Below are positions 1 to 16,018 of a stretch of 26,759 nt of DNA, piece after piece. The stretch is from a virus (lineage: Duplodnaviria > Heunggongvirae > Uroviricota > Caudoviricetes). The translations under genes were made by a program, and so were the position numbers. The stretch is from positions 1-26,759 of the IMG/VR virus record IMGVR_UViG_2531839665_000020. The stretch is one strand, 5' to 3'. Under the pieces are notes generated by a model. That model did not search any database. It was given only the letters and a program-made list of their open reading frames with translations, and was not told the DNA's origin. The stretch's first letter is position 1. The number at the start of each line of letters is the position of its first letter.

Positions 1-381
1 ATGCAGAAAAATGTGACTCCCGGCAGGCGAAAAGGCTGCCCTAATTATCCTCCCGAATTTAAACAGCAGCTCGTTGCTGCCTCCTGTGAACCCGGGATAT
101 CCATCTCAAAACTTGCTCTTGAAAATGGCATTAACGCCAATCTGTTGTTCAAATGGCGACAACAATGGCGCGAGGGAAAGCTGCTATTACCTTCTTCAGA
201 GAGCCCCCAGCTACTTCCTGTGACTCTCGATGCAGCTGCCGAACAGCCAGAATCGCTCGCAGAGGACCCGGAAACCCTCAGTATCAGCTGTGAGGTAACG
301 TTCCGGCACGGGACGCTCCGCTTCAATGGCAATGTCAGCGAAAAGCTCCTGACTCTGCTGATACAGGAACTGAAGCGATGA
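1..381 (+). CDS. IS66-family accessory protein orfA (TnpA-like)
   Basis: 126-aa ORF starting at base 1; N-terminal helix-turn-helix-like region (KQQLVAASCEPGISISKLALENGINANLLFKWRQQW) typical of IS66 orfA; stop overlaps the orfB start (ATGA at 378-381). Confidence 0.85.
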   Translation: MQKNVTPGRRKGCPNYPPEFKQQLVAASCEPGISISKLALENGINANLLFKWRQQWREGKLLLPSSESPQLLPVTLDAAAEQPESLAEDPETLSISCEVTFRHGTLRFNGNVSEKLLTLLIQELKR

Positions 382-725
382 TCCCGTTACCTTCCGGGAC
401 CAAAATTTGGCTGGTTGCCGGTATCACCGATATGAGAAATGGCTTCAACGGCCTGGCTGCGAAAGTACAGACGGCGCTGAAAGACGATCCCATGTCCGGC
501 CATGTTTTCATTTTCCGGGGCCGCAGCGGCAGTCAGGTTAAACTGCTGTGGTCCACCGGTGACGGGCTGTGCCTCCTGACCAAACGGCTGGAGCGTGGGC
601 GCTTCGCCTGGCCGTCAGCCCGTGATGGCAAAGTGTTCCTTACGCAGGCGCAGCTGGCGATGCTGCTGGAAGGTATCGACTGGCGACAGCCTAAGCGGCT
701 GCTGACCTCCCTGACCATGCTGTAA
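378..725 (+). CDS. IS66-family orfB (TnpB)
   Basis: 115-aa ORF with IS66 TnpB signature ([22 protein letters not shown] ... FIFRGRSG); translationally coupled to orfA. Confidence 0.9.
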
Positions 726-774
726 ATCTCTTTATCCTGGTTGTCACAGAATAAGCCCGGTAAAATACGGGCTT

Positions 775-2313
775 ATGAACGACATCTCTTCTGACGACAT
801 CTTCCTGCTGAAACAGCGCCTGGCCGAACAGGAAGCGCTGATCCACGCCCTGCAGGAAAAGCTGAGCAACCGGGAGCGCGAAATAGACCATCTGCAGGCG
901 CAGCTGGATAAACTCCGCCGGATGAACTTCGGCAGTCGTTCCGAAAAAGTCTCCCGCCGTATCGCACAAATGGAAGCCGATCTGAACCGGCTTCAGAAAG
1001 AGAGCGATACGCTGACTGGTAGGGTGTATGACCCGGCAGTACAGCGTCCGTTGCGTCAGACCCGCACCCGTAAGCCGTTCCCTGAATCACTACCCCGTGA
1101 CGAAAAGCGACTGTTGCCTGCGGCGCCGTGCTGCCCGAACTGCGGCGGTTCACTGAGCTATCTGGGCGAGGATACCGCCGAACAGCTGGAGTTGATGCGT
1201 AGCGCCTTCCGGGTTATCCGGACGGTACGGGAAAAACATGCCTGTACTCAGTGCGATGCCATCGTGCAGGCACCTGCACCTTCGCGGCCCATCGAGCGGG
1301 GTATCGCCGGACCGGGGCTGCTGGCCCGCGTGCTGACCTCGAAGTATGCAGAGCACACCCCGCTGTATCGCCAGTCAGAAATATACGGCCGGCAAGGTGT
1401 GGAGCTGAGGCGTTCACTGCTGTCGGGCTGGGTGGATGCATGCTGCCGGCTGCTGTCTCCGCTGGAAGAGGCGCTTCATGGCTATGTCATGACTGACGGC
1501 AAACTCCATGCCGATGATACCCCGGTCCAGGTACTGCTGCCGGGTAATAAGAAGACGAAGACCGGGCGGTTGTGGGCGTATGTTCGTGATGACCGCAATG
1601 CAGGGTCAGCGTTGGCACCTGCAGTGTGGTTCGCTTACAGCCCGGACAGAAAAGGCATCCATCCGCAGACTCATCTTGCCTGCTTCAGCGGTGTGCTGCA
1701 AGCGGATGCGTACGCCGGGTTCAACGAGCTGTATCGCAATGGTGGGATAACGGAAGCTGCCTGCTGGGCTCATGCCCGCCGAAAGATCCACGATGTGCAC
1801 GTCCGCATCCCGTCAGCACTGACGGAAGAAGCCCTGGAGCAGATCGGTCAGTTGTACGCCATAGAGGCGGATATAAGGGGAATGCCGGCAGAGCAGCGGC
1901 TTGCTGAACGTCAGCGAAAAACGAAACCGTTGTTGAAATCCCTGGAAAGCTGGTTGCGTGAAAAGATGAAGACCCTGTCGCGACACTCAGAGTTGGCGAA
2001 GGCGTTCGCGTACGCACTTAACCAGTGGCCGGCACTGACGTACTATGCGAACGATGGCTGGGTGGAAATCGACAACAACATCGCTGAAAATGCCCTGCGG
2101 GCGGTCAGTCTGGGTCGTAAAAACTTCCTGTTCTTCGGCTCTGATCATGGTGGTGAGCGGGGAGCGCTACTGTACAGCCTGATCGGGACGTGCAAACTGA
2201 ATGACGTGGATCCAGAAAGCTACCTTCGCCATGTGCTTGGCGTCATAGCAGACTGGCCGGTCAACCGGGTCAGCGAACTGCTTCCGTGGCGCATAGCACT
2301 GCCAGCTGAATAA
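775..2313 (+). CDS. IS66-family transposase (orfC)
   Basis: 512-aa ORF with N-terminal leucine-rich coiled coil, CxxC...CxxC zinc-finger region and DDE-type core, following orfA/orfB as in IS66. Confidence 0.9.
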
Positions 2314-2396
2314 CACATCCCCGTCAATACGGCCCTCGCTGTACGCTTACGGTATTTCTGACTCATGGCCGTTTTTATAATGCGGCCAGGTGTTTT

Positions 2397-2747
2397 TTAC
2401 AACATTGTCAGGGCGTTAAGGCGGGATGTTTTTGGCTGACGCCAGTCCAGCTTATCGAGGAGCATTGCCAGTTGCGAGCGGGTAATGGATACCTTACCGT
2501 CACGCACCGCAGGCCAGATAAACTGGCCTTCCTCCAGGCGTTTGGTGAACAGGCACAGACCATCAGCATCAGCCCAAAGAATTTTAACGGTGTCCCCCCG
2601 TCGGCCACGGAAGATAAACAGGTGACCGGAGAAGGGATTATCATTCAGCACATGTTGTACCTGTTCTCCCAGTCCGTTGAAGGATTTACACATATCGGTA
2701 ACGCCGGCAACGAGCCAGATACGGGTACCTGATGGGAGTGAAATCAT
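2397..2747 (-). CDS. IS66-family orfB (TnpB), second copy
   Basis: 116 aa, MISLPSGTRIWLVAGVTDMCKSFNGL..., clearly paralogous to the 378..725 product but diverged. Confidence 0.85.
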   Translation of the reverse strand: MISLPSGTRIWLVAGVTDMCKSFNGLGEQVQHVLNDNPFSGHLFIFRGRRGDTVKILWADADGLCLFTKRLEEGQFIWPAVRDGKVSITRSQLAMLLDKLDWRQPKTSRLNALTML

Positions 2748-3169
2748 CTTCCCCTCCCGCTCAGTTCGCGGATTAACATCGTGAGCAGCTCTGGCGATGG
2801 ATTTTCCAGCGTCATGTTACCGTGACGGAATTCCACCTTGCAGGAACTGGCACTGACTCTGGTCTGAGTGGAAGTGGATAAAGACGGCGCAATGGCCGCC
2901 ACAGGTTCTTTCTGCTCATCCGGCGTTATTTCTACAGGTAATAATTCAACGCCAGTGTCAGAAGAGGTTGTTACCGGAAGACGCCGCGAAACATGCCCTT
3001 CGTTCTGCCAGAGCCTGAGCCATTTGAAAATAACATTATCATTGACGCCATTTTCTCGTGCAATCTGTGTAACACAAGCTCCAGGTTGTGATGCCAGTTC
3101 AACCATACGAAGTTTGAATTCATTCGAATACTTTTTACGAGGTTCTTTTCGCCAGTCCTGTAATTCCAT
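2744..3169 (-). CDS. IS66-family orfA, second copy
   Basis: 141 aa with the same HTH-like motif (EFKLRMVELASQPGACVTQIARENGVNDNVIFKWLRLW); ATGA-type overlap with downstream orfB. Confidence 0.8.
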   Translation of the reverse strand: MELQDWRKEPRKKYSNEFKLRMVELASQPGACVTQIARENGVNDNVIFKWLRLWQNEGHVSRRLPVTTSSDTGVELLPVEITPDEQKEPVAAIAPSLSTSTQTRVSASSCKVEFRHGNMTLENPSPELLTMLIRELSGRGR

Positions 3170-3296
3170 ACTTAGATGTCCGTCTGTGTCAGATGGGCGT
3201 CTAAGTTACCAATTCTTGTCTAATGGCTACATACGGCGGTCGGTTTACGCTTACTCTAATTCGTCAGATTCTGACCAGACGGTTCAGGCTGTACGC

Positions 3297-3431
3297 TTAC
3301 GATTCTTTAGGCAGATAATAATTTTGATCAGCCCATTCAACTGCCGTCATTGGTACAACCCTGACCAGAGGCTGCAGCGCAACCGAAACGGCAGCCATCA
3401 TATTATTCAGTTGTTGCTCTGATATATTCAT
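3297..3431 (-). pseudogene. Terminase large subunit (gpA-like), N-terminal ~44 codons only, truncated by IS66 insertion
   Basis: Translation MNISEQQLNN...PMTAVEWADQNYYLPKES matches the lambda gpA N-terminus pattern (MNIS...TAVEWADANYYLPKES); the reading frame runs into the IS66 terminus at 3300 and stops at 3297; start overlaps the 3' end of the Nu1-like gene. Confidence 0.7.
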
Positions 3432-3912
3432 CGAGTAAATCCGGTAATTTATCCCCTGCCCGCGCACACTGATTTGCCCCCTTAGCAATAAGGGTTTTCA
3501 GATGGTCAAGATGGCGCGGTGTTAAATCAGGAAACTGTCGCTGCATGGATAAAGGGATGGAATCAAGCGTACTGGATAACGCCATTGCCAGCTTACTGAG
3601 GGCAAAAATACAGAACCCGGTGTCAATAAGTTTTCCTTTTGACACCTCATTTTTTAACTGCTGTGTAACAGCCTGTTCTGCTGTCAGTTCCCATCTGGCA
3701 ATAAGCAATTTCTCCTCATAGTCGTCTTCGCTATCGCCATCAGGCACATCGTTTTTACTTCTCCTCAGATACGATATGTAAAAATCGCGCCAGGCATCCA
3801 GATCCAGTTGCCCTCGCTTATTCGATATCGGGGCACCCGGCAATTTCTGCAATCTGCGAAGCTGGCGATCGGTCAGACTTAAATGCCTGGCAACTTCAGT
3901 CTGCGTAGCCAC
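3403..3912 (-). CDS. Terminase small subunit, Nu1-like
   Basis: 169 aa; C-terminal region (TGFCIFALSKLAMALSSTLDSIPLSMQRQFPDLTPRHLDHLK...LLDEYI) resembles Nu1/NohA; GTG start preceded by GAGGTGAGGA; cos site immediately upstream. Confidence 0.8.
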   Translation of the reverse strand: MATQTEVARHLSLTDRQLRRLQKLPGAPISNKRGQLDLDAWRDFYISYLRRSKNDVPDGDSEDDYEEKLLIARWELTAEQAVTQQLKNEVSKGKLIDTGFCIFALSKLAMALSSTLDSIPLSMQRQFPDLTPRHLDHLKTLIAKGANQCARAGDKLPDLLDEYIRATTE

Positions 3913-3954: not shown

Positions 3955-4120
3955 CCGGTCATGTCCGGTTTACATGTCCGTTTTTTGCACATGTCCGGTT
4001 CACGGACAGCCTGTTTTTATATTTTTCATATAGTTAACTTGCAGAGAAACCGGACATGGATCCCGGAAAATTTTCATAAATAGCGAAAACCCGCGAGGTC
4101 GCCGCCCCGTAACCTGTCGG
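3955..4120 (-). other. cos site: cosN cohesive-end sequence (4096..4107) plus cosB-like repeated terminase-binding motifs (3955..4060)
   Basis: Reverse complement of 4052-4120 reads CCGACAGGTTACG/GGGCGGCGACCT/CGCGGGTTTTCGCTATTTATGAAAATTTTCCGG, matching the phage lambda right-end/left-end junction as I recall it; three direct CATGTCCG(G) repeats (3960, 3973, 3990) and one inverted copy (4050) lie between cosN and the Nu1-like gene. Confidence 0.85.
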
Positions 4121-4159: not shown

Positions 4160-4307
4160 TCTACATGTCACAACGTGCATCTACGCCATCAAACCACGTC
4201 AAATAATTAATTATGACGCAGGTATCGTATTAATTGATCTGCATCAACTTAACGTAAAAACAACTTCAGACAATACAAATCAGCGACACTGAATACGGGG
4301 CAACCTC

Positions 4308-4532
4308 ATGTCAACGAAGAACAGAACCCGCAGAAAAACAACCCGCAACATCCGCTTTCCTAACCAAATGATTGAACAAATTAACATCGCTCTTGATCAG
4401 AAAGGTTCAGGTAATTTTTCAGCGTGGGTTATTGAAGCCTGCAGAAGAAGATTAATTAATGAAAAACATGCTCAATTTGTACCCAACAAAGACAAACACG
4501 ACCAGAGCACCTGTTCAGACAGGTTTACTTAA
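4308..4532 (+). CDS. Small basic hypothetical protein (possible DNA-binding)
   Basis: 74-aa ORF, Arg/Lys-rich N-terminus (MSTKNRTRRKTTRNIRFPNQ); transcribed opposite to the late operon; no family recognised with confidence. Confidence 0.5.
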   Translation: MSTKNRTRRKTTRNIRFPNQMIEQINIALDQKGSGNFSAWVIEACRRRLINEKHAQFVPNKDKHDQSTCSDRFT

Positions 4533-4613
4533 ACGACTTATATATGACACAAAAAGCGACCACTAAAGTCGCTTTTTCTTATGGTAACAGGCAATAACGC
4601 TCTCAGATATTTT

Positions 4614-4928
4614 TTAGCATTTTTTTGACCGCGCGTTTCCGGACGTATTCTGTTCTCCTGTCCCTTTATATCGTCGGAATACCCGCCGCTCTTCAAATCC
4701 CATTCCCAACTCAGAATGTAGTCTGTTGACCGCTTGTTTTATTTCGGTCAGGTTCACCGGTGAAACCGGAGTCCGGCGCGCCTTACGCAAACACTCTGCT
4801 CGTTTCTGTGCCGCCACTTTTCTTTTCTGGTCATCACTTAGCTGTACCATCACTTTTGCCCATCGTTCAGCTGCTCTCCGGTACAGTCCTTTTTTCTCCA
4901 GACATTCTGCCACGTGATCATGTAGCAT
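4614..4928 (-). CDS. PerC-family transcriptional regulator (Pch-like)
   Basis: 104 aa; motif LEKKGLYRRAAERWAKVM matches the PerC/Pch signature; ATG preceded by GGAGG; long A-tract-rich region upstream. Confidence 0.7.
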   Translation of the reverse strand: MLHDHVAECLEKKGLYRRAAERWAKVMVQLSDDQKRKVAAQKRAECLRKARRTPVSPVNLTEIKQAVNRLHSELGMGFEERRVFRRYKGTGEQNTSGNARSKKC

Positions 4929-5100
4929 AAGTGACCTCCGATTATCTACAGACTGCCATCCTGAATTTACCTTCCCTTAATGAAATAACAATAAAAAACA
5001 AACCACGCAAAAACAATAAAATAACACACAAAAAAAACTAAATAATAAACAAAAATAATCACCTTATTTTATTATTTTTTGAGGGGGCAATTACTGAACA
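4929..5100 (-). promoter_or_regulatory. AT-rich, A-tract-rich upstream region of the PerC-like gene (probable promoter / curved DNA)
   Basis: Dense A-tracts (e.g. 4980-5090) directly upstream of the gene; compositionally unlike flanking DNA. Confidence 0.4.
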
Positions 5101-5393
5101 AAAAACGCTGACTATATACTCAAAACCAAACAACTATTCTGCCAATCAGGTATCATGGCAACACACGGAATTACCGTGTTTTTGCCTTCTCTGCCCATAC
5201 AATACGGGCATATACTTCATACTCTATTGTAATATTTCTATCCATGCGCCCCACTCCATTTACCTGTAAATAATATTCAAAATATTTATCACAGAAATCG
5301 TTTTTGTCCATGAACTGAGCACACTATAAAGTCCGGAACTGACTCTTTGTTAAATTACCTTAACGTTACCAGTAACACCTTCATAACAAAACA

Positions 5394-5861
5394 TCACGGT
5401 ATACACTGGGTACGGATATATTCCTGTGCTCCTTCCAGTTGCTTCTGCATTGCCATCAGCCGTTCTCTGAGGATGAAATAATCCCGTTCAGCGGCTTCTG
5501 CCAGTCGGGGACCGGTTGCATTATCCACGCCGGAGGTGATGGGGGCTTTACGCAAGGAGCCTGGACAGTTGGCGTTGATGCGCAGGCGCTTACGACCAGC
5601 GGCAACATCAGCACGCAGAGTTTCATTTTCAGCTCTCGCATCGGCTAATTCCCTCGAGTATCTGGCATCAAGTGCAGCGACATCACGCTGGCGTACCTGC
5701 ATATCAGTAATTGTCACGTTCGCCAGCTTCAGCTCACTGGCTTTTTTATCGCGTTGCGCTTTGTAGGTAATGGCGTTATCGCGGTAATGATTCAGCCCCA
5801 GACTAAGCACACCACAGGCTACCAGCAGGACAATAATCACCACACACAGAACACGGTTCAT
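5394..5861 (-). CDS. Rz: Spanin inner-membrane subunit Rz
   Basis: 155 aa; N-terminal TM segment followed by [25 protein letters not shown]...[10 protein letters not shown], a close match to lambdoid Rz. Confidence 0.9.
5456..5641 (-). CDS. Rz1: Spanin outer-membrane lipoprotein Rz1 (embedded in Rz, +1 frame)
   Basis: 61-aa ORF nested in Rz; lipoprotein signal (LPLVVSAC) then Pro-rich stretch ([16 protein letters not shown]) typical of Rz1; exact start (M1 vs M6) uncertain. Confidence 0.75.
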
Positions 5862-10606: not shown

Positions 10607-10949
10607 CGAATTTCTCCCGTGTACAGGAACAGAGTTAAAAAGCCGGAACCGGAATCAAATCACAGGATGACCATCTGCCAGTGGCTGGTCGTAAAAAAAA
10701 GGCCGCGCCATGCGCAGCCGGAAATAAAGGGATAACGATGATAGTTTGAGAAAAACAGAAATAACACTTTTGTGGCAAAGCATGGTGCCGGGTGCCTCCC
10801 GGTGAATTCAGTACCAGCACCTGAATCCGCGATTATCCCATATACCTAGTTGCTGATTGCCCCTCCGCACAGGGGGATTCACCATGCAGTAGTATTTTTA
10901 ATAAACAGTAAACAAAAAAATCAAGCATTATGCAGGCTGTTTCTTTTTA

Positions 10950-11683: not shown

Positions 11684-12505
11684 CTATCTGGTCACCTTTT
11701 TCAGTTGTTGTTCTGCCCATGCTTCTTCAATATCAAACTGCACCACCAGCGTATCGTAAAAACGTTTAACTGTTTTTTTCCATGTATCAAGAGATATGGC
11801 ATCGGTTACATTACATATGGCATTAAATGCCTCCGTTGAAGGTAATCTTTCATAGCCACGACCACCACAACGCTGGCAGTCTCTGATAACAGGCATACCA
11901 CGTTTTACCGACTCTTCACGATGAATGGCAACACCGCGCCCACGACAATCTTTACAGGCGGTGGAAACCTCCCCCTTCCCTCCACACTCCGGACAGGCAA
12001 CTTTTACCACCTCCCTGACTTTTTTCCATTCCTCCCAGTAAGACGGATACACGCCTTTTGTGCACTTTGCCCACACTGGCGGCTTACCATCCGGATACTG
12101 GATCTTGTTTGTAAAAACCTCGCTTTCAATAAATTTTTTTCCGTGACAACAGGGGCACTGTTTTTTGCTCGCCGCGCTACGGGCATAATCTTCAAACGCA
12201 TACGAAGCCATAATACGCATCACTGCCGGTTTTATTTCTGCCGGGAGTTTTCTTAACGCCGCCACGCGATCACACCGACTGAGTGCATATTCTGTCAGCA
12301 ATTCTGTTGCCCGCTCTCTGTCATTCATACTAATGCCCATTTTCCCAAGGAACGCAGAAAACCCCATCTCAGCCCAATTCTGTGTCATGCCCTGCGCGGC
12401 CATCACATCAGTGATACTCAGCGTATCTTTCGACGTTGAGGCCGATGCATCAGTCAGGCCGGGGGATTTTGGGGAGTAGTATTTCGGTAAATCTTCCAGT
12501 TTCAT
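11684..12505 (-). CDS. Q: Late antiterminator Q (phage 82/21-type, zinc-binding)
   Basis: 273 aa with four CxxC motifs (CPCCHGKK, CPECGGKG, CKDCRGRG, CQRCGGRG) and overall similarity to 82-type Q; ATGA overlap with rusA stop. Confidence 0.85.
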   Translation of the reverse strand: MKLEDLPKYYSPKSPGLTDASASTSKDTLSITDVMAAQGMTQNWAEMGFSAFLGKMGISMNDRERATELLTEYALSRCDRVAALRKLPAEIKPAVMRIMASYAFEDYARSAASKKQCPCCHGKKFIESEVFTNKIQYPDGKPPVWAKCTKGVYPSYWEEWKKVREVVKVACPECGGKGEVSTACKDCRGRGVAIHREESVKRGMPVIRDCQRCGGRGYERLPSTEAFNAICNVTDAISLDTWKKTVKRFYDTLVVQFDIEEAWAEQQLKKVTR

Positions 12506-14765: not shown

Positions 14766-14921
14766 TTACTCCTCAGGTTCGTAAGCTGTGAAGACAGCGA
14801 CCTCCGTCTGGCCGGTTCGGATTCGTACCTCGCAGAGGTCTTTCCTCGTTACCAGTGCCGTCACTATGACGGTTAAACAGATGACGATCAGGGCGATTAA
14901 CATCGCCTTTTGCTGCTTCAT
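14766..14921 (-). CDS. hok: Hok/Gef-family type I toxin (51 aa)
   Basis: MKQQKAMLIALIVICLTVIVTALVTRKDLCEVRIRTGQTEVAVFTAYEPEE matches the Hok family; ATG preceded by AAGGAGAAG; an in-frame upstream ATG at 14978 gives a 70-codon mok-like extension. Confidence 0.85.
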   Translation of the reverse strand: MKQQKAMLIALIVICLTVIVTALVTRKDLCEVRIRTGQTEVAVFTAYEPEE

Positions 14922-14924
14922 AGC

Positions 14925-15010
14925 CTGCTTCTCCTTGACCTTTCGGTCCGTAAGAGGCAATCTATATGTGACGAGCATATAGGGGCCTCACTTCGATTTA
15001 TAGTCGGGTG
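14925..15010 (+). ncRNA. Predicted Sok-like antisense RNA region (approximate)
   Basis: Placed by analogy with plasmid R1 hok/sok: leader elements GCTTGAGGCTATCTGCCTC and GATTGCCTCTTACGG resemble the R1 hok leader as I recall it; exact RNA ends not determinable by eye. Confidence 0.3.
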
Positions 15011-15112
15011 GGGCTTTTATCTATCTGCCGTTGGTGTTCATGCCCGAGGCAGATAGCCTCAAGCACCCGCAGCAATTCTACTTAACTCTGCCGTTACAGC
15101 AAGCCGTTTTCG

Positions 15113-15259: not shown

Positions 15260-16018
15260 TCAAGTGCCTTTCCTGGTCCAGCCATATTTTTTGAATGCAG
15301 GCGCCGCTTCATCGGTTTGTAGCCATTCTGCAAATCGACGGGTTTCATCATTTGCATCCTGACGTACTGTAATGTTCATATCACGCCATATCACGTAGTC
15401 TGGCGCTATTTCCACGACATCACCAATTTCTGGATTACTGGCTGCCCAGTCAGCCCAGGTTATCCAGACATCTGCTTCAGGCTGATTCTCAAGAGCCTTA
15501 CGTGCAGTTCCGCTATTGGGCGCATATAAAATAATATTTTTTCGGATTGCGGCGACAGTTTCTATATTCCCTTTACGTCCGGCAATATCTTCCCAGACGC
15601 CAGTGCCTGATGTATTACTGGTACCACCACCATCATTAACAATTACGCCAATCCCGGGTCTGGTCAGGTCGTCAATACTCCGGATATTTTTAGGATTACC
15701 TTTCTTTACCAGTAAAATACTTTTTCGCAGATAAAGAGGCTGAATATCTTTTTCACTGAAGCTGTCTTTATGGTCCCGAATGATAGCCAGAGCAGATTGT
15801 TCTGATGCGCCAAACAAGATATCTGCATTTTTTTTGGCATCTTCATTCCATTTGTTCTGTGGGCCGTAATGAACGTTCACTATAATACCTGTTTTTTCGG
15901 CATAAAGTTTGGCTGCATCAAGCAAGGCTGTATGCGGGCCACCAGGACCATACAGATTGATATCAGCATAAGCAGCAGAAGACAGGAATATTAAAAAACC
16001 TGCCATTATGTTCCTCAT
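15260..16018 (-). CDS. Orphan periplasmic substrate-binding protein, ModA/TupA-like
   Basis: 252 aa; signal peptide (MAGFLIFLSSAAYA); ADILFGASEQSA and C-terminal AAPAFKKYGWTRK resemble E. coli ModA (ADLFISADQKW; AAEIFKRYGFTIK); no permease or ATPase gene adjacent. Confidence 0.8.
   Translation of the reverse strand: MRNIMAGFLIFLSSAAYADINLYGPGGPHTALLDAAKLYAEKTGIIVNVHYGPQNKWNEDAKKNADILFGASEQSALAIIRDHKDSFSEKDIQPLYLRKSILLVKKGNPKNIRSIDDLTRPGIGVIVNDGGGTSNTSGTGVWEDIAGRKGNIETVAAIRKNIILYAPNSGTARKALENQPEADVWITWADWAASNPEIGDVVEIAPDYVIWRDMNITVRQDANDETRRFAEWLQTDEAAPAFKKYGWTRKGT

Follow-up and report, generated by a model that had tools for sequence, protein, structure and literature searches.

In EHEC and atypical EPEC, the LEE attachment machinery is activated at the top level by the phage-borne Pch proteins. 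According to the literature, PchA, PchB and PchC each activate ler, as does group 1 and not groups 2 and 3; PchD and PchE have little or no such effect, and PchE instead represses curli and flagella. Pch counteracts H-NS/StpA/Hha at LEE1, and both PchA and Ler are needed for full expression of the LEE and effector genes. LrhA, butyrate (acting via Lrp, and LeuO) and nitrogen status (acting via NtrC/sigma-S) have all been reported to influence pchA transcription. [quoted passage not shown]

The DNA analysed here, referred to as the window, was a stretch of 26,759 nt from a Caudoviricetes record (IMGVR_UViG_2531839665_000020). The sole convincing ORF of the region under study in the ORF list encoded a protein of 104 aa and occupied positions 4614 to 4928 on the minus strand. 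Its product matched the Pfam PerC profile (PF06069; E = 3.8e-44, 149.3 bits, gathering cut-off 22.6) over profile positions 1-89 of 90, which represents the full domain, and it showed no difference along its 104 aa (100% identity) from the PchA protein (ECs_1091) of the E. coli O157:H7 strain Sakai. It differed from PchB by one residue (V6L, 99% identity) and from PchC by V6L and V58M (98% identity). The initial annotation had named the gene as a PerC-family (Pch-like) regulator; the Pfam score and the identity to PchA, a LEE activator characterised by experiment, showed that this was right.

The comparison drew on the five pch genes of Sakai and on perC of EPEC, and the protein alignment had six sequences. 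Identity of the window protein was 47% with PerC, 40% with PchE and 29% with PchD, and all 16 of the invariant columns of this six-sequence alignment were kept (M1, A7, L10, E11, G14, R17, R18, A19, R22, W23, M27, R36, R43, C46, G75 and R85). A C-terminal tail of 15 aa was present only in PchA, PchB, PchC and the window protein; PerC, PchD and PchE, at 89-90 aa, were without it. At the nucleotide level the window gene carried the pchA bases at coding positions 16, 172 and 183, the nucleotides that separate the group-1 pch genes (PMC5931665). On sequence grounds the gene is a group-1 pch gene, specifically a pchA allele, which is a sharper designation than "PerC family transcriptional regulator".

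The same data bear on a rival reading, in which the gene encodes an inactive PerC homologue akin to PchD and PchE or has decayed. Nothing but family membership speaks for the PchD/PchE-type assignment, against which stand the complete identity to PchA, the length of 104 rather than 89-90 aa and the low identity to PchD and PchE; the alignment with PchA/B/C and PerC placed the protein in the long group 1 with its core complete and ruled out the short PchD/E-like class. Decay is contradicted by the intact ORF and by a conserved SD sequence and terminator. We consider this explanation extremely improbable. The activity of the window copy would follow from its identity to PchA. A sequence-based search for a solved structure of a relative returned none.

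Among complete E. coli genomes, the 315-nt ORF was present at at least 99% identity in 687 records, corresponding to 676 of 5426 genomes, each of which had a median of three copies. Copies with 100% nucleotide identity occurred in EDL933 and in numerous further A/E strains. As totals only, ler was found in 697 and group-1 pch in 676 of the 5426 genomes. The three closest prophage relatives among the matches listed (AP038983, CP193491 and CP031908) were all ler-positive. The closest relatives among the matches listed were LEE-positive O103:H2 strains, in which the prophage occupied ydfJ/rspB and was likewise a stump. These relatives carried nleG7 beside the prophage, and the window prophage itself carried paa. 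A LEE-positive host is therefore likely, as judged from the relatives.

The window corresponded to a lambdoid prophage, running from its late end to the integrase and located at ydfJ/rspB. Positions 1 to approximately 3300 (1-3304) were occupied by IS66-family elements, nested such that an ISEc8-like tnpA/tnpB/tnpC set (1-2313) was followed by a second tnpA/tnpB pair (2397-3169) in the opposite orientation. Abutting these elements was a terminase large-subunit gene stub of approximately 130 nt, the junction being at about 3301, and beyond it lay the gene for the terminase small subunit/Nu1 (3403-3912, minus strand). The exact lambda cohesive-end sequence cosN, GGGCGGCGACCT, was found at 4096..4107 on the minus strand, approximately 190 nt 5' of the Nu1 start; the bases that flank it are lambda-like. 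The ylcI/ynfO gene (4308-4532, plus strand), pch and Rz (5394-5861) came next. Beyond Rz the order was endolysin, holin, SASA esterase, STnc100 late leader and Q. The STnc100-type RNA (10747-10913, minus strand) was located just 3' of Q (11684-12505), at the place of the late-promoter leader. After Q came the genes for replication and immunity, followed by DicF/dicB, exonuclease, xis and int. A sok antitoxin RNA of a hok/sok module was found at 14919-15068 (minus strand), with hokD annotated in the relatives. In the early region, annotation of the near-identical relatives identified paa (15260-16018, minus strand), which encodes an AcfC-family adhesin linked to attaching-effacing E. coli, beside a decayed fimbrial gene.

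The int gene (25464-26759) was at the opposite end of the window from pch. The initial annotation had placed the regulator near the prophage end. In the prophage map this did not hold, since pch was mid-map with the integrase at the other end; the gene lay between Rz and cos/Nu1, 0.5 kb from the exact lambda cosN that forms the right end of the virion DNA, and the earlier placement was imprecise. Recognisable phage DNA ended at about 3301, 1.3 kb past pch, where the IS66-family elements interrupted the terminase large-subunit gene. As judged from the sequence, the prophage is defective, having been truncated in the terminase gene by these elements. When 5426 complete E. coli genomes were searched for the exact IS66/terminase junction, it was found in none. 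The cos site was intact though the packaging and head genes were gone.

Comparison with Sakai Sp8, a lambdoid prophage without pch, delimited the segment that contains the gene: toward ylcI/cos the homology broke off at 4442, and it resumed at 5416, within Rz. The resulting pch cassette is a moron-like insert of approximately 1 kb (4443..5415, minus strand). The flanks were present in 4173 genomes, whereas at least 80% of a query spanning 4200-5400 was covered in just 672, compared with the 676 that had the pch ORF. A bidirectional intrinsic terminator was predicted at 4551..4577, where pch and ylcI/ynfO converge; its hairpin, in which AAAAAGCGAC and GUCGCUUUUU form the arms on either side of the loop, had a predicted free energy of -15.7 kcal/mol (z = -2.7), was flanked by A and T runs and was invariant across pchA, pchB and pchC. 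By these features, a discrete insert absent from related phage and a putative terminator of its own, the cassette appears to qualify as a phage moron.

On the minus strand, pch was collinear with Q, the STnc100 late leader and the lysis genes. When the gene strand was followed from 5900 to 4500, the hairpin at 4551-4577 was the only stable one with a T-run after it, and no stable hairpin with a T-run was found on that strand between Rz and pch. Since pch lies on the late-gene strand and no such terminator separates it from Rz, Q-modified transcription should read into pch. Such read-through is consistent with the finding that an SOS-inducing drug raises group-1 pch transcripts, an effect that was significant for pchC and not for pchA in strain PA20. 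The repressor of the window prophage was a short DicA-like HTH protein, and the SOS inducibility of late transcription is therefore uncertain.

Direct reading of the sequence showed a GGAGG SD sequence 6 nt 5' of the ATG (4935..4939, minus strand), which was mostly paired in the predicted mRNA folds. In minimum free energy (MFE) folds of the full mRNA, modelled with four leader lengths, the SD paired with GUGAUGACC at +92..+100 inside the coding sequence (4829..4837, minus strand), a candidate anti-SD. A 160-nt fragment adopted a different predicted fold (z = -0.58) that was no better than those of shuffled sequences. Assignment of +92..+100 as the SD partner is tentative, because the shorter fragment folds otherwise and does not beat the shuffles. 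The initial annotation had described the SD as strong. GGAGG is present, but strong translation is not implied by it, because the SD is reported to be occluded by the anti-SD in the coding sequence.

The DicF sRNA gene was located on the same prophage (22012..22063, plus strand; Rfam RF00039, 77 bits, full length). The 5' end of DicF (UUCUGGU) was complementary to ACCAGAA at +98..+104, a segment that overlaps the candidate anti-SD; the energy of the DicF-mRNA duplex was just 2.6 standard deviations or so better than that of shuffled DicF. DicF was also present in the Sakai Sp4 (pchA) and Sp11 (pchB) prophages, and none was detected in the examined stretch of Sakai Sp14 (pchC). The regulator and its activator sRNA are therefore often, not always, carried together.

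The 465-nt region between Rz and pch (4929..5393, minus strand) co-occurred with the gene and is regarded as the pch regulatory region or leader. This spacer was always found with pch, in 673 genomes at 1878 places compared with 676 genomes and 1881 places for the ORF. It was of the pchA type, with few SNPs, and approximately 98.7% identical to that of Sakai pchA over 465 nt including the T-rich tract. The tract, located 47-137 nt 5' of the ATG (4975..5065), was distinguished by its extreme base composition, with A-runs on the plus strand and T-runs on the gene strand; the plus strand was 64% A and 79% AT. In 90-nt windows around it, AT content reached 83% and the share of one base 66%, the maxima of the 26.8-kb window (mean 51% AT), and the density of A/T runs of at least 4 nt was 4.1 per 100 nt within 4929-5100 compared with 1.4 per 100 nt window-wide. 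The A-tract-rich upstream region noted previously was thereby confirmed, no other stretch of the window being as AT-rich or as strand-biased. When the pchA, pchB, pchC and window copies were compared, the tract was the most variable part of an otherwise near-invariant spacer, yet it was T-rich throughout, a pattern that fits if it is the composition, not the sequence, that is constrained.

Sigma-70-like promoters 5' of pch were sought with a consensus scan and a second, custom scan, and only weak matches (8-9 of 12) were obtained, at a frequency no higher than that in shuffled sequence. Three of the promoter-like matches on the gene strand, in which the -10 hexamer ended at 5133, 5116 or 5071, lay 5' of the tract, and a further match (4991..4964) was 3' of most of it. 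A "native PpchA" is used in the literature. No match to the Lrp consensus YAGHAWATTWTDCTR with two or fewer mismatches was found in 4929-5393, and matches with three mismatches were unconvincing. The search of the Rz-pch-cos region for known RNA families yielded none, only a chance-level PrrF match (E = 0.57).

A 46-aa ORF in the Rz-pch spacer (5171-5311, minus strand) was open in the window and at the Sakai pchA, pchB and pchC loci. It is probably not a gene: the differences between copies were nearly all non-synonymous, there was no Pfam or NCBIfam match, and RefSeq carries no annotation for it. The spacer also contained a terminator-like hairpin at 5163-5179 (ACACGG-AATTA-CCGTGT, then TTTTGCC), on the plus strand only and so antisense to pch. 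This hairpin could act as a stop for antisense transcripts heading toward Rz.

The tract is part of the regulatory region that travels with pch, and two more definite roles for it were weighed. H-NS-type silencing had been proposed in the initial annotation, and the tract could be an H-NS nucleation site that keeps pch silent until environmental signals relieve the repression. Its AT content, far above that of its surroundings and the highest in the window, its constant association with pch, the retention of its composition across pchA, pchB and pchC despite the varying sequence, and the general binding of AT-rich horizontally acquired DNA by H-NS in EHEC (literature) are all compatible with such a role. 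Two checks on the sequence did not support it, however. The spacings between A-tract centres (15.5, 8.5, 14 and 19.5 bp) were out of helical phase, and the high-affinity motif TCGATAAATT had no match with two or fewer mismatches in 4929-5100, the nearest being at 5347. The papers and supplements searched contained no account of H-NS binding to, or repressing, a pch promoter, and the ChIP-chip supplements of PMC4764244 contain no per-gene table for ECs1091, ECs2182 and ECs2737. Furthermore, LrhA, Lrp and NtrC/sigma-S already explain environmental control. A nucleation site is somewhat unlikely on this balance, and H-NS control of pch itself is a possible but unsupported conjecture. The environmental control that had been proposed along with it was borne out by the pchA literature, which describes responses to LrhA, Lrp/butyrate, NtrC/sigma-S and DicF/low oxygen.

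Alternatively, the tract may be part of a long 5' leader and act on the RNA as a U-rich element, through Hfq or S1 binding, as a translation enhancer or as a stability element. The promoter-like matches at 5133, 5116 and 5071 would give leaders of approximately 140-200 nt that include the tract, and post-transcriptional control of pchA by mRNA structure and an Hfq-dependent sRNA is already known; but the matches were all weak and no commoner than in shuffled sequence, and the candidate promoter at 4991..4964 lies 3' of most of the tract. We judge this role to be quite unlikely. Two broader proposals are that the tract may be a control element of one kind or the other (an H-NS/StpA/Lrp nucleation site or a U-rich leader) and that the prophage may be a self-contained virulence switch, in which pch and its translational activator dicF are combined with late read-through that would tie pch to derepression; these we regard as unlikely. 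If the tract is a control element, its variation among pchA, pchB and pchC could explain their reported differential regulation.

The reading that we prefer is that the window very probably carries a functional group-1 pch gene, a pchA allele, in a cassette of approximately 1 kb between Rz and the cos/terminase region of a defective lambdoid prophage. By analogy with the identical protein in the literature, its product would bind AT-rich virulence loci, chiefly the LEE1 (ler) regulatory region, and would loosen the repressive H-NS/StpA/Hha complex, such that Ler is made and LEE type III secretion and the non-LEE effectors are switched on. The upstream region, with the AT-rich tract as a part of it, would answer host-niche signals through the chromosomally encoded LrhA, Lrp with butyrate, and NtrC/sigma-S. 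Pairing with the coding sequence would hide the SD, and the prophage sRNA DicF would expose it at low oxygen, as described in the literature; upon derepression of the prophage Q-dependent late transcription would be expected to read into pch.

This is an ordinary copy of the well-studied, phage-carried pchA in a familiar place; nothing about the gene is new, and current understanding is unchanged by it. A copy identical to pchA does place the window in the prophage pool of attaching-effacing pathogens. The gain is in annotation, namely a group-1 Pch (pchA allele), a cassette of approximately 1 kb with its regulatory region and terminator, and DicF on the same prophage.

The closest known counterpart is PchA of Sakai (ECs_1091, Sp4; also called PerC1), whose protein, SD and terminator are the same as those of the window copy. 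In Sp4, however, the holin-endolysin-Rz-pchA block (22131-29827 of the Sp4 sequence) is inverted with respect to Q and terminase and is bracketed by IS629 and ISEc8. In the window, unlike Sp4, the pchA block runs in line with Q and the late genes, an arrangement shared with Sp11 and Sp14. The Sp4 inversion would uncouple pchA from late transcription, and it may bear on the report that SOS induction was seen for pchC and not for pchA. PchB (ECs_2182, Sp11) and PchC (ECs_2737, Sp14) are encoded in the same position and orientation as in the window, in the order Rz-pch-(ylcI)-cos-Nu1; the sequence of the pchB upstream tract is clearly divergent from that of the window, although it is still T-rich.

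More distant relatives share the family and differ in context. PerC of typical EPEC belongs to the same Pfam family, is 47% identical to the window protein over residues 2-88 and shares with it the N-terminal residues A7, L10, E11, G14, R17, R18, A19, R22 and W23; both activate LEE1, according to the literature. PerC is nevertheless a protein of 89 aa without the 15-aa tail, and its gene is the third of the PerA-controlled perABC operon on the EAF plasmid pMAR7, with no phage cassette. PchD (ECs_1388, SpLE1; 29%) and PchE (ECs_1588, Sp7; 40%) are PerC-family proteins of 89-90 aa found in other genetic contexts. In its layout, the pch cassette resembles lambda bor and the other lambdoid moron cassettes between Rz and cos, which likewise add a gene, together with its own terminator, to the conserved late genes toward the right end of the virion map. 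The resemblance does not extend to orientation: lambda bor is on the strand opposite the late genes, whereas pch is on the late-gene strand.
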